Part shown: positions 955 to 6,025 of the stretch, one piece after another
How the letters are laid out: the number at the start of each line of letters is the position of its first letter
Numbering within the stretch: the stretch's first letter is position 1
Virus record (IMG/VR): IMGVR_UViG_2585427756_000018
Reading direction: 5' to 3' (one strand)
Length of the DNA stretch: 6,537 nucleotides
Source of the DNA: a virus
Lineage: Duplodnaviria; Heunggongvirae; Uroviricota; Caudoviricetes
The notes under the pieces: generated by a model
Told to the model about the DNA's origin: nothing
Seen by the model: only the letters and a program-made list of their open reading frames with translations
Databases searched by the model: none
Translations under genes and position numbers: made by a program

Positions 955-1464
955 TTATTCAGTTGTTGCTCTGATATATTCATCGAGTAAATCCGGTAAT
1001 TTATCCCCCGCCCGCGCACACTGATTTGCCCCCTTCGCAATAAGGGTTTTCAGATGGTCAAGATGGCGCGGTGTTAAATCAGGAAACTGTCGCTGCATGG
1101 ATAAAGGGATGGAATCAAGCGTACTGGATAACGCCATTGCCAGCTTGCTGAGAGCAAAAATACAGAACCCGGTATCAATAAGTTTTCCTTTTGACACCTC
1201 ATTTTTTAACTGCTGTGTAACAGCCTGTTCTGCTGTCAGTTCCCATCTGGCAATAAGCAATTTCTCCTCATAGTCGTCTTCGCTATCACCATCAGGCACA
1301 TCGTTTTTACTTCTTCTCAGATACGATATGTAAAAATCGCGCCAGGCATCCAGATCCAGTTGCCCTCGCTTATTCGATATCGGGGCACCCGGCAATTTCT
1401 GCAATCTGCGAAGCTGGCGATCGGTCAGACTTAAATGCCTGGCAACTTCAGTCTGCGTAGCCAC
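955..1464 (-). CDS. nu1: Terminase small subunit, lambda Nu1-like
   Basis: ORF-track 169 aa. C-terminal half (FCIFALSKLAMALSSTLDSIPLSMQRQFPDLTPRHLDHLK...LLDEYI) aligns with lambda Nu1 from memory; N-terminus (TQTEVARHLSLTDRQLRRLQ) is HTH-like. GTG start at 1464-1462 with GAGG about 6 nt upstream and an in-frame TGA just before it. Sits between cos and the large subunit as in lambda. Confidence 0.85.
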   Translation of the reverse strand: MATQTEVARHLSLTDRQLRRLQKLPGAPISNKRGQLDLDAWRDFYISYLRRSKNDVPDGDSEDDYEEKLLIARWELTAEQAVTQQLKNEVSKGKLIDTGFCIFALSKLAMALSSTLDSIPLSMQRQFPDLTPRHLDHLKTLIAKGANQCARAGDKLPDLLDEYIRATTE

Positions 1465-3059: not shown

Positions 3060-3518
3060 TTATTTCAGGCACTGAGTGCGGATATAGTCCTGTGCCCCTT
3101 CCAGTTGCTTGTGCATCGTCATCAGCCGCTCTCTGAGGGTGAAATAATCCCGTGTAACGGTGTCTGCCAGTTGGGGGCCGGTTGCATTATCCACGCCGGA
3201 GGTGGTGGGGGCTTCACGCACGGAGCCTGGACAGGTGGCGTTGATCCGCAGGCGCTTACGACCAGCGGCAACGTCAGCGCGAAGAGTTTCATTTTCAGCT
3301 CTCGCATCGGCTAATTCCCTCGAGTATTTTGCATCGAGCGCAGCAACATCGCGCTGGCGCACCTGCATATCAGTAATGGTTGCGTTCGCCAGCTTCAGTT
3401 CACTGGCTTTGTTATCGCGCTGCGCTTTGTAGGTAATCGCGTTATCACGGTAATGGTCTGTTGCCATCCACAGCGCACCACAGGCCACCAGCAGAATAAC
3501 GATAAACGCGGAAAGCAT
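3060..3518 (-). CDS. Rz: Rz inner-membrane spanin (i-spanin)
   Basis: [35 protein letters not shown]...[28 protein letters not shown] parallels lambda Rz from memory. N-terminal TM segment, then coiled-coil-like region. ATG at 3518 preferred over the ORF-track GTG at 3533. Confidence 0.9.
3122..3307 (-). CDS. Rz1: Rz1 outer-membrane lipoprotein spanin (o-spanin), embedded in Rz in the +1 frame
   Basis: [61 protein letters not shown]: lipobox VSAC, proline-rich mature part, very close to lambda Rz1 (…[14 protein letters not shown]…GIISPSERG). Entirely inside Rz, as is characteristic. Confidence 0.9.
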
Positions 3519-3529
3519 TCGGTTTATGT

Positions 3530-3661
3530 TCACCCCAGCAACCCCGACGAAGACAACATCATCCAGGCCATGGAAAGAAAAAGAGCAACCAGCATTAGTG
3601 AAAATGAAATGCCGACAATTACACAGAGGATCTTCGCCAGCGTTATGAGTTTGTCTGACAT
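3530..3661 (-). CDS. Hypothetical small membrane protein, 43 aa, single predicted TM helix
   Basis: ATG at 3661-3659 with strong SD GGGAGGA about 6 nt upstream. [43 protein letters not shown]. Its TGA stop (3532-3530) overlaps the GTG/ATG region of Rz. The ORF-track 73-aa form has no SD at its start. Confidence 0.5.
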
Positions 3662-3675
3662 GCTTAATCCTCCCT

Positions 3676-3858
3676 TCACGATTTCAACGCAATGACCAGT
3701 TTTGCCAGCCCATACAGCATCGGGGACACAGCAACACCGACCGCCACCCACTTAATGGCAAAAGCCAGTGCTCTGCTGATGTCATCAGTTACAGGCGCTT
3801 TCAGTTCAAGGCCATTTTTCATAGTCAACCTCAACAGAATTCGTTTACACTTCGCCAT
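3676..3858 (-). CDS. Hypothetical small protein, 60 aa (alternative start 3822 gives 48 aa), hydrophobic C-terminal segment
   Basis: [66 protein letters not shown] lies 3 nt before ATG 3858; GAGG lies 6 nt before ATG 3822. Its TGA stop sits immediately 5' of the SD of the next small gene (AAATCGTGAAGGGAGGATTAAGCATG), implying an operon. Confidence 0.45.
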
Positions 3859-4014
3859 GTTCTCCCTTGCCTTACTCAAGGTCAGAAACACAAAACCTCG
3901 CTTGGTGCCAACAAACGGGGTTTTTACTTTTATTCACTTACGTTTCGCCAGTTCGCAGGATTTCGTGTTATCCGCCCGCGTGGCCATTCCTCATTTTTCA
4001 GCAAAATATTCTGC

Positions 4015-4548
4015 TTATCTGTCGATACCCCAGCACGCCAGCGCGCTCTCCTGGTCACGACGGGATACCTGACCGTAACAGTTGTTTGAACGAATACGGC
4101 AGTCTCTGCCACCGTCCTTAATCCACCAGCGAATCGCTTCGCAGGCACCTTTTCGATCACCAGCATTAATTCGTCTGTAAAACGTCGACGGGAAACACTT
4201 ACCGGGACCAATGTTGTACGGACAGAATGACGCGATCCCCGCTTTCTGGGGTTCGGTCAGCGGCACTCTGATGTTTTTCTCCACCCACGCCAGCGCTTTA
4301 TCACGCTCAATGGCGTTAACCTGGTCGCATTTTTCCTTCGACAACTTCATGCCCGGAACGACAGGTTTGCCATCCACCATGATGGCACCACGGCAGATGG
4401 TCCAGATACCTGCACCATCACGGTATGCTGTGGTGTGGTTGCCTTCCTTTTCATCCAGAAACTGGTCGAGAATGTCAGGCGCAGGCGCACCAGCGGCAAT
4501 CAGCGCCAGAACGGCAGCCGACAGGCCGTATTTGATTTTGGTGTTCAT
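4015..4548 (-). CDS. R: SAR endolysin (T4-lysozyme-like, phage 21 R21 type)
   Basis: 177 aa. N-terminal Gly/Ala-rich weakly hydrophobic signal-anchor-release segment (KYGLSAAVLALIAAGA). E-x8-D-x5-T catalytic spacing in DEKEGNHTTAYRDGAGIWTICRG, as in T4 lysozyme and R21. RINAGDRKGACEAIRWW resembles R21 INQGDIKGACDQLRRW, from memory. Confidence 0.9.
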   Translation of the reverse strand: MNTKIKYGLSAAVLALIAAGAPAPDILDQFLDEKEGNHTTAYRDGAGIWTICRGAIMVDGKPVVPGMKLSKEKCDQVNAIERDKALAWVEKNIRVPLTEPQKAGIASFCPYNIGPGKCFPSTFYRRINAGDRKGACEAIRWWIKDGGRDCRIRSNNCYGQVSRRDQESALACWGIDR

Positions 4549-4584: not shown

Positions 4585-5475
4585 CTAAATACGCACTTTA
4601 AGATAAGTCAGCCCCGGATGAAGCCAGTAAGCCGGCACTTTTTTAAAGGGTGGAGTATTAAAATCACGAAGAAGAGCCTCCCGCACAATTGCATCCTTAT
4701 CAGCACCACTGGCCAGCGCTTCAATCTCAGCGGCTACCTGAAGATATCCCATGCAACGGCCAACGCGCTTCATCAGCCCCTGCTTTTTATTGTTCTTCAG
4801 GTAATCAATGGCAAATTCAATGAGCTCCTCACTGTGCTGGTGCGATGGAGGTGTTACTTTCCCATTTTCTGAGATGGTTATTTTCCCAGCATCACCGGAT
4901 ACAACAAAGGATGGCCGGTTACACTCCCATTCCAGCTCACTGAAATTATCATTATGAATACTGAAACACTCTGCGAGATTTCTGCTCATCACTTTCCGAC
5001 AATAATCGTCAAACGCAGCAAACTGCTTTTCATCGCCAGAAGGCACCAATATCGACCATTTCTTATTCAGCTCAACGACGTAGCTCTCCAGTTTTTCAAT
5101 ACGTGATTCAACATCATCTTTTTCTGACCGCAGTGTTGACGGCGGCATCTTCAGAGAACAAGTAATTCTTCCCGGTAGCTTTCCTTTGTAGGTTATCAAC
5201 ACATCCTGCGCCTCTAAAATTACGGGGCGCTTTTCCGGCAACGGTTCGTTCCATTCACATAACCCGGCAGCAACATCCATGAAAAACTGCTTCGCCTGCT
5301 TTTTCGCCTCAGCTTCGTAAAACTCCAGCGTGGCACCTTCAGTACGGTCAAGACTAATCGCCACATCTGGCAACAACAGCGACGCTTGCCCGTCACCTTC
5401 CGGCTTCACAGTAACAGTAACCTTATCCCCGTAATTATTTATCCCCTTAACAACCAGTTCATATTTTTTATTCAT
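4585..5475 (-). CDS. Hypothetical 296-aa protein inserted between pinholin and endolysin; family not recognised
   Basis: Uninterrupted ORF (track 4585..5478 uses GTG; ATG at 5475 preferred). SD GGGGAGAG lies inside the last codons of the pinholin gene, 7 nt before the ATG. Predicted soluble (no long hydrophobic stretch), with a probable coiled-coil stretch (DDVESRIEKLESYVVELNKKW). Hand-counted GC is about 40-42% on two 60-nt samples versus about 57-58% in terminase and endolysin samples. Confidence 0.8.
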   Translation of the reverse strand: MNKKYELVVKGINNYGDKVTVTVKPEGDGQASLLLPDVAISLDRTEGATLEFYEAEAKKQAKQFFMDVAAGLCEWNEPLPEKRPVILEAQDVLITYKGKLPGRITCSLKMPPSTLRSEKDDVESRIEKLESYVVELNKKWSILVPSGDEKQFAAFDDYCRKVMSRNLAECFSIHNDNFSELEWECNRPSFVVSGDAGKITISENGKVTPPSHQHSEELIEFAIDYLKNNKKQGLMKRVGRCMGYLQVAAEIEALASGADKDAIVREALLRDFNTPPFKKVPAYWLHPGLTYLKVRI

Positions 5476-5479
5476 CACT

Positions 5480-5695
5480 TTACTCTCCCCGCGCCGCCTT
5501 ACGCCGGTCCTCTTTGATTTTGAAATACAGGTTAGTCAGGTACGTCAGCAGCCCAAACAGCAGACTCCCCAGCACGCCTATTGCCGCCCACTGAGACGGG
5601 GAAACCCTGTCCAGCAACTGCAGGAACCAGTAGCCCGTTCCCACCGCTGACGTGGTGTATGACACACCTGTTGTGATTTTTTCCATCTGGTACAT
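5480..5695 (-). CDS. S: Class II holin (pinholin), phage 21 S21 family, dual-start 71/68 aa
   Basis: [71 protein letters not shown] is near-identical in pattern to S21 (…[26 protein letters not shown]…[20 protein letters not shown], from memory). Two TM segments, the first SAR-like. Two in-frame ATGs at 5695 and 5686; GGGAGA lies 6 nt upstream of the first. The ORF-track 89-aa form starts upstream without an SD. Confidence 0.9.
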
Positions 5696-5771: not shown

Positions 5772-5971
5772 TTACATCATCATGTCGCTGTCAGGTGTGG
5801 GTTCACCGCCATCTGAAGCACTCCCGTCACCCGCGATACCTTCCGGCTCCGGAACCGCTGGTACGCCCAGCAGCTCATCCAGAATGGCATCCACTTCTGC
5901 ATCAAGACGCGACTCAAGGTTCTGGCGGAGTTTCTGTTTCAGTGCGCTCAGGACTTCTTCAGAGCGCAGGA
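5772..5971 (-). pseudogene. 3' fragment (66 codons) of an unidentified gene whose 5' part is cut off by the IS insertion
   Basis: Minus-strand frame open from the IS boundary to TAA at 5774-5772: …[65 protein letters not shown]. No start codon; the frame runs straight into the IS left end. The two plus-strand ORFs here (5762..5974, 5782..6000) are antisense to it. Confidence 0.5.
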
Positions 5972-6025
5972 TGAACCGCCCCGGGAATCCTGGAGACTAA
6001 ACTTCCTGAGAAAGAGGTAAACAGG

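Follow-up and report, generated by a model that had tools for sequence, protein, structure and literature searches.

Two small genes between the endolysin and Rz genes

The virus record IMGVR_UViG_2585427756_000018 (Caudoviricetes) contains a 6,537-nucleotide (nt) stretch of DNA, referred to here as the window, whose relevant minus-strand genes are a lambdoid late/lysis region of an E. coli prophage. Between the endolysin gene R and the spanin gene Rz of this region lie two small open reading frames (ORFs), orfA and orfB, which are the subject of the present analysis. R (4015..4548, minus strand) encodes a 177 amino acid (aa) protein of the Phage_lysozyme family (PF00959, E 2.4e-24; phrog_7), the N-terminus of which shows weak hydrophobicity and is similar to a signal-anchor-release (SAR) domain. 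Rz encodes the i-spanin (3060..3533, minus strand; PF03245, E 2e-47) and the o-spanin gene Rz1 is nested in it (3122-3307, minus strand; PF06085, E 4.4e-20). The minus-strand gap from the end of R at 4015 to the start of the longest Rz ORF at 3533 is 481 nt, which agrees with the approximately 480 bp given in an earlier inspection of the letters alone (the sequence-only reading). In lambda, R and Rz overlap.

The gap contains orfA (3676..3858, minus strand; 60 aa, with a 48-aa alternative) and orfB (3530..3661, minus strand; 43 aa), both starting with ATG. Two small ORFs at this site had been described in the sequence-only reading, and both are conserved and coding-like. PGAP annotates exactly these 60-aa and 43-aa products (WP_001446668.1, phrog_1115, and WP_001280932.1, phrog_4906, respectively) as ‘hypothetical protein’ in identical genomes. 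The span proposed earlier, 3530-3891, corresponds to the two longest ORFs (71 and 73 aa); real-looking genes do lie inside it, but the likely coding sequences are shorter. Three of 25 variants have CTG in place of the GTG of the 71-aa orfA form (3676..3891), which is also disrupted by indels, while the 73-aa GTG form of orfB (3530..3751) lacks a Shine–Dalgarno (SD) element (−1.5 kcal/mol); both forms were rejected.

Approximately 220 related loci were gathered from viral contigs and annotated genomes and their distinct nucleotide variants were compared. The numbers of variable sites at the first, second and third codon positions are 17, 7 and 36 in orfA and 12, 7 and 17 in orfB. The ratio of nonsynonymous to synonymous polymorphism (pN/pS) is 0.28 for orfA, 0.20 for the orfA core and 0.40 for orfB, and the annotated frame has the lowest value of the six; the antisense frames have worse ratios and some contain stops. 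Two antisense ORFs on the plus strand, 3692..4072 (126 aa) and 3453..3695 (80 aa), were discarded because of their higher pN/pS and stops in some frames. The conserved unit of orfA comprises its last 38 aa or so. The conservation check suggested with the sequence-only reading, a search for frameshifts, was favourable to the genes: neither frameshifts nor premature stops were found in 210 copies of the orfA core and 163 copies of orfB (fetched loci, aligned over at least 90% of the length). With 163–210 intact copies and third-position-biased change, chance ORFs are unlikely; judged by these substitution patterns, orfA and orfB look like genuine protein-coding genes. Many E. coli chromosomes carry the 701-nt stretch between the end of R and the start of Rz with 100% identity, and plaque-forming PhiR12 phages carry it with 96%; 986 of 5,426 complete E. 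coli genomes contain at least 80% of it.

That these ORFs exist is not new: databases already list them as hypothetical proteins, and ribosome profiling (RIBOseq) has picked out one homologue. This homologue, XECs191 of E. coli O157:H7 Sakai, is reported among translated intergenic ORFs and is predicted to be an inner-membrane protein with one transmembrane (TM) helix (PMC5597208). Its values in LB are 30.0 reads per kilobase per million (RPKM) for RNA and 12.6 RPKM for RIBOseq, with a ribosome coverage value (RCV) of 0.43 and a coverage of 0.55 (PMC5597208). XECs191 is 67% identical to orfB over 43 aa and matches the orfB homologue located between ant and Rz in phage 933W; it differs from orfB in belonging to another prophage and in having a longer form with a TTG start (49 aa) (PMC5597208). 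The supplementary tables of that study give its occurrence and weak translation, with neither a function nor a lysis context.

The two genes are tightly packed, both with each other and with Rz. The orfA stop TGA (3678-3676) runs directly into the sequence AGGGAGG (3675-3669), located seven nt 5′ of the orfB ATG; this junction, TGA-AGGGAGG (3669..3678, minus strand), is evident from the sequence and from the duplex energy. The SD/anti-SD duplex of orfB has an energy of −11.3 kcal/mol, compared with a window background of −3.45 on average and with 1.9% of positions at −10 or below. The first possible start of the Rz ORF, GTG 3533-3531, overlaps with the orfB stop TGA (3532-3530) in a GTGA motif (3530..3533, minus strand) read directly from the sequence. 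The abutment of the first stop on the second SD, the overlap of the second stop with the Rz start and the presence of credible ribosome-binding sites had all been described from the letters and are borne out; translational coupling, described together with them, fits the gene packing and is itself deduced from it. An alternative Rz start, ATG at 3518, is the one chosen by PGAP. Rz started from GTG begins with MNINR... and has a basic N-terminus, as in Rz of 933W (MNRV...), which is lost with the ATG 3518 start; neither candidate start has a well-spaced SD.

The start codons of the 60-aa and 48-aa forms of orfA are invariant across the 25 distinct variants, and an SD-like element accompanies each. 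The internal in-frame ATG (3820..3822, minus strand) is preceded by GAGG (3832-3829) with a 6-nt spacing, its SD duplex has an energy of −6.8 kcal/mol and many gene callers select the 48-aa form; the ATG at 3822 may thus be a second orfA start. Twelve codons separate the starts, and the longer product gains the basic residues K3, K5, R6 and R10.

Each gene is predicted to make a single-helix inner-membrane micro-protein. With a Kyte–Doolittle window of 19 residues and the usual threshold of 1.6, the maxima are 1.88 for orfA and 2.89 for orfB, in agreement with the hydrophobic helices noticed earlier; one TM helix is predicted in each. The orfA product consists of a basic N-terminal segment and a single C-terminal hydrophobic helix, and the orfB product has a single strongly hydrophobic helix with a predicted N-in orientation; the residues N-terminal of the helix carry net charges of +5 and +1, respectively. 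The predicted periplasmic tails are short, about 12 residues in B and 2 in A, the C-termini being KS (A) and the uncharged SSSGLLG (B). AlphaFold2 (AF2) modelling of the 71-aa form of orfA gave helices at residues 2-26 and 34-70 (pLDDT 74.5), with a long helix across the A core (pLDDT 82–88). The hydrophobic helix is kept in all variants.

A hairpin followed by UUUUGUGUUU (3892..3924, minus strand), similar to an intrinsic terminator, is located between R and orfA. The window copy has an energy of −12 kcal/mol (z −1.15), being weakened by a single G-to-A change; the majority variant, with G, forms a 13-bp stem of −18.9 kcal/mol (z −2.7) followed by a U-rich run. The hairpin is listed by a terminator scan whose total count is not above that of shuffled sequences. 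A simple consensus scan detected no sigma-70-like promoter on the coding strand and no promoter-like site near orfA or orfB on either strand. A terminator-like element upstream, together with the lack of a detected promoter, fits Q-antiterminated late transcription of these genes, as far as can be inferred. Judged by eye, related cassettes with a GH108 endolysin appear to have a comparable hairpin, with another stem sequence, before orfA.

Micro-ORFs at the distal end of lysis cassettes

Comparison of the related loci shows that the R–Rz interval is a variable slot and not a fixed pair of genes. Micro-ORFs of the families A/C, B, D, E and F occupy this slot in varying order and copy number; the six peptide types are each 28–60 aa in size and possess one hydrophobic helix. 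The window represents the A-B architecture (556 nt). Other intervals have the architectures A-B-A'-C (772 nt), D-B-A'-C (711 nt) and E-A''-F-C (771 nt); Shiga toxin (Stx)-type cassettes have ant-D-B-A'-C, and phage 933W (locus L224, 3421-3570) has ant-B, with B unannotated. C, with the sequence MSAELIRAMAFAIRIVAIAVLVWAIRWW, is 28 aa long and is a homologue of the orfA core; the sizes of the others are about 31 aa (D), 34–50 aa (E), 49 aa (F) and 38–40 aa (A'). These additional families, C to F, were located in L155 (3001-3349) and in the interval classes of L217, L138 and L059. The homology of A and C is supported by common PHROGs and by one natural chimera. The N-terminal segment of the A family is exchangeable, five distinct N-termini being found on one core.

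The two genes had been described as a coupled pair, but the comparison shows that they are not an obligate one: A occurs alone in L085 and so does B, between ant and Rz, in 933W; the order is reversed elsewhere, and both belong to a larger shuffled set. The reversed order, B then A', is characteristic of the Stx-type and 711-nt cassettes. Several database proteins that look like B::A fusions (P0094, P0079, P0097 and P0108) arise from this B-then-A' layout, in which an ORF in the frame of A shares sequence with the end of orfB; rather than real fusion proteins, they are probably artefacts of gene calling or rare frameshifts. Junctions as tight as those of the window occur in other classes, B being joined to A' via GTGA (772-nt class) or with a 2-nt gap, and C to Rz with a 1-nt gap.

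Among about 200 related loci, micro-ORFs are nearly always located after the endolysin gene where one is present (the exception is L084), and the micro-ORFs or their arrays always precede Rz or a small lipoprotein gene. The preceding endolysins belong to the Phage_lysozyme, GH108 and Peptidase_M15_4 families, and three holin families are represented. An A-B unit about 80% identical to that of the window follows a GH108 endolysin, with different holins, and precedes the gene of a 60-aa lipoprotein instead of Rz. In E. coli STEC308 (L225, NZ_CP091020, 4404-7707), the order is holin, holin, GH108 endolysin, A (60 aa), B' (44 aa) and the 60-aa lipoprotein; L091, L100, L109 and L125 are further loci listed with the GH108-type cassette. 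The lipoprotein (phrog_7528) has the lipobox LVGC and three cysteines in a mature part of 30 aa. No Rz/Rz1 is annotated before the terminase gene in the STEC308 cassette, within the 11 kb examined. A-family arrays also follow M15-peptidase endolysins, with B in one such locus. The peptides are therefore not specific to the pinholin/SAR-endolysin system; since the arrays also follow GH108 and M15-peptidase endolysins, their association is with the distal part of lysis cassettes in general.

Homologues of B are present in 276 phage records, most of them of Shiga-toxin-converting phages, including 933W, phi24B and Min27, and are mostly unannotated. orfA is present in PhiR12/PhiR5 phages, and the carriers of orfA and orfB relatives include plaque-forming phages.

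Relation to known protein families

Residues 1-60 of orfA match positions 8-67 of the 67-residue phrog_1115 profile (E 3.7e-42) and residues 1-43 of orfB match positions 7-49 of the 49-residue phrog_4906 profile (E 2.1e-23). The PHROGs of orfA are phrog_1115, phrog_4493 and phrog_3246 and that of orfB is phrog_4906; none has an assigned function, and this direct membership of PHROG and PGAP families shows only that both ORFs recur in phages. Pfam yielded no families for orfA and, for orfB, only DUF3930 at E 0.08, below the cutoff. Neither peptide has an NCBIfam match, and neither matches the PHROG families of the ‘lysis’ category, the spanin family PF03245 or the spanin PHROGs. The PADLOC defence models gave no families for A, B, C, D, E, F or the lipoprotein, and Rfam gave nothing in the region 3400-4100. 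The dissimilarity to Hok/Gef and holins stated in the sequence-only reading thus stands against Pfam, NCBIfam and PADLOC; as for an established lysis-accessory annotation, only function-less PHROGs and ‘hypothetical protein’ were encountered.

The A/C profile recovered 256 clusters, all named hypothetical or uncharacterised, with named sources that are nearly all Escherichia or Salmonella; one cluster is labelled Pseudomonas aeruginosa. The B profile recovered only 29 cluster representatives among 1.84 billion proteins and no distant family. Protein searches likewise gave relatives of A almost only in Escherichia and Salmonella and relatives of B in E. coli, with the database names hypothetical, uncharacterised or membrane protein. 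A scan of one genome per species produced pattern matches, none of which was confirmed. Literature searches by accession, phage name and lysis keyword returned nothing specific besides XECs191 and functional precedents. Judging by the searchable literature, neither a shuffled set of micropeptides with one helix each inside lysis cassettes nor the largely unannotated presence of B in most of the Stx-converting phages has been described.

Several known groups of small membrane proteins invite comparison. Class II holins have two TM domains (TMDs) and a charged C-terminal tail, whereas orfA and orfB have one hydrophobic stretch each and no such tail; with no holin-family match either, membership of the holins was rejected. 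The two candidate starts and the predicted basic extension of orfA are reminiscent of the dual-start pair S71/S68 of phage 21. Antiholins and holin modulators are likewise tiny phage membrane proteins and act at lysis; orfA and orfB showed no sequence similarity to holin families and do not go with one holin family alone. A functional precedent is ORF52 of phage BSPM4, a 64-aa protein with one TMD that binds the holin and delays lysis (PMC11657625), although orf52 is located outside its own lysis cassette and orfA and orfB are inside theirs. Another small membrane accessory protein encoded near an endolysin is the releasin gp25 of phage Mu, which is membrane-anchored and controls the release of a SAR endolysin from the membrane; it has 99 aa, an N-out/C-in topology, a DUF2730 domain and an acidic cytoplasmic domain of 73 aa (PMC9239132). 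The peptides described here have only 43–60 aa, have no extramembrane domain and occur also with non-SAR endolysins; the absence of a DUF2730 hit and of a cytoplasmic domain of about 70 aa led to the rejection of releasin membership. Nor are they i-spanins, given the lack of a PF03245 match and periplasmic tails of at most about 12 residues in place of a long coiled-coil domain. Type I toxins (Hok/Gef, TisB, Ldr, Ibs and ShoB) are comparable in size and hydrophobicity and are often prophage-borne, but orfA and orfB are sense-oriented within an operon, with no antisense RNA or promoter of their own found; this group was also rejected, with no Pfam or NCBIfam toxin hit, no Rfam RNA and no promoter in the consensus scan.

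Possible functions and neighbouring genes

The explanation favoured here, with a probability of about 0.4, is that the products of orfA and orfB are late-expressed inner-membrane peptides modulating the membrane step of lysis, most likely holin triggering or timing in an antiholin-like manner. Transcription would probably depend solely on the late promoter, with Q-antiterminated read-through, and translation would probably run in a chain: A, then B from its strong SD, then Rz via the stop/start overlap. The peptides would be inserted in the inner membrane and act there when lysis occurs. Each would work through its conserved TM helix, the N-terminal segments of the A family being interchangeable, and the peptides would serve as accessory modulators, most probably adjusting holin triggering and hence lysis timing, and not as core lysis effectors. 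Lambdoid phages of Escherichia and Salmonella would carry different combinations of such shuffled micro-genes distally in their lysis cassettes. The site, the presumed time of expression and the size of the peptides fit modulation of holins or timing, and BSPM4 ORF52 provides a precedent (PMC11657625).

A number of observations weigh against this explanation. Both genes are absent from the Qin prophage of E. coli K-12 and are not known from lambda, so they are dispensable for lysis. The wide variation in copy number and order is typical of accessory (moron) genes. No preference for a single holin or endolysin family is seen, contrary to what would be expected of a classical cognate antiholin, which pairs with the TMDs of one holin. 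Many of the compared copies are identical, and the pN/pS values are pooled from non-independent, short, recombining sequences; the absence of a promoter rests on a simple consensus scan. The RIBOseq signal is weak and was recorded in uninduced cultures (PMC5597208), and its source, XECs191, is a homologue with 67% identity from another prophage.

According to a different explanation, which is unlikely, the peptides are moron-type cargo that benefits the lysogen or blocks competitors, for instance by superinfection exclusion at the inner membrane, and that is merely lodged in the lysis cassette. The genes bor and lom are lodged in the late regions of lambda. The content, copy number and order of the micro-ORFs differ greatly among otherwise similar cassettes, which suits cargo, as do the dispensability of the peptides and their absence from Qin; a clear accessory gene, that of a TonB_C lipoprotein (2423-2803), lies just downstream, and a small lipoprotein follows the array in many loci, some phage lipoproteins (Cor, Llp) being exclusion factors. 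Cargo is harder to reconcile with a sense orientation and tight packing into Rz translation, with the lack of a PADLOC match and of a detected promoter of its own, and with a terminator-like hairpin that lies upstream rather than downstream. That the B homologue was transcribed and occupied by ribosomes at a low level in uninduced Sakai (PMC5597208) also counts for cargo, but this signal could stem from spontaneous induction in a few cells. It is quite unlikely that the peptides act at the spanin or outer-membrane step, assisting, gating or partly replacing spanins together with the following Rz/Rz1 or 60-aa lipoprotein. The arrays always stand directly upstream of Rz or the phrog_7528 lipoprotein, the orfB stop overlaps the Rz start, and in STEC308 A, B' and the lipoprotein occupy the usual place of the spanins, with no annotated Rz/Rz1 before the terminase gene. 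Nevertheless, a periplasmic part of about 12 residues in B and 2 in A is too short to span the periplasm in the manner of i-spanins, the lipoprotein is not a u-spanin, as it lacks a C-terminal TMD, and the absence of spanins from GH108-type phages rests on the 11 kb examined.

The GTGA overlap of the B stop and the Rz GTG, the lack of a well-spaced SD at either Rz start, the very strong SD of B and the equally tight C-to-Rz and B-to-A' junctions of other classes would all be expected if the ORFs were translational-coupling leaders that deliver ribosomes to Rz, the peptides themselves mattering little. This is nonetheless very unlikely, since purifying selection acts at the amino-acid level with the hydrophobic helix kept in all variants, the same peptides are also found upstream of unrelated genes (those of the lipoprotein, A' and C), and lambda-type cassettes express Rz without such a leader. 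Least probable is that the ORFs encode membrane-depolarising toxins similar to those of type I toxin–antitoxin systems, or are functionless chance ORFs. They are small and hydrophobic like Hok, TisB and Ibs and have no known function, but no toxin family of Pfam or NCBIfam, no antisense RNA of Rfam and no promoter on either strand near orfA or orfB accompanies them; the antisense frames have worse pN/pS and contain stops, and the 163–210 intact copies with third-position-biased change are at odds with chance ORFs.

Modulation of lysis would be of interest in several respects. Lysis by phages of Gram-negative hosts usually employs a holin, an endolysin and spanins, with few known regulators, and here a family-rich set of 28–60-aa membrane peptides is placed inside the lysis cassette. 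Because Stx release depends on phage-mediated lysis, toxin output would be affected by a peptide that shifted lysis timing. With genes this short and easily mutated or expressed, the question is directly testable; an effect on lysis timing or toxin release, if shown, would sharply raise the importance of the orfA/orfB set, while inert cargo would still mean a useful correction of annotation. A broader proposal, which is doubtful, is that at least five micropeptide families (A/C, B, D, E and F) form an undescribed class that sets the timing or sharpness of lysis via helix–helix contacts; the GH108-type cassettes showing no Rz/Rz1 would then contain an alternative last-step module with the 60-aa lipoprotein, and the B-type genes would influence the timing of Shiga toxin release.

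Among the other genes of the window, the class II (phage 21 S-type) holin gene (5480..5695, minus strand) encodes a 71-aa protein (PF04971, E 1.5e-32). Its N-terminus, MYQMEK (5684-5695, minus strand), retains both in-frame Met codons of the dual-start motif of phage 21 S; the three-residue extension, which is MKS in S21, has no basic residue here, and the longer product may be a weaker antiholin. A 297-aa ORF of the DUF1327/YdfR family (4585-5478, minus strand; DUF1327 N-terminal) sits between S and R and starts two bases past the S stop; the annotation of strain 7/2, whose region is identical, calls it a truncated pseudogene. The TonB_C lipoprotein ORF (minus strand; 126 aa, lipoprotein-like, with a TonB C-terminal domain) is located downstream of Rz/Rz1, a position that in lambda and 933W is occupied by bor, and is probably a moron gene. 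The small terminase subunit is encoded at 955-1464 (minus strand). An insertion sequence of the IS3 family (about 5950-6537, plus strand; first ORF 6026-6352) lies just upstream of the holin gene, thereby separating the lysis cassette of this prophage copy from the late promoter region, and could affect late transcription here. The element contains the only Rfam hit of the window, an ALIL frameshift pseudoknot (6307-6423) with a score of 120 bits.

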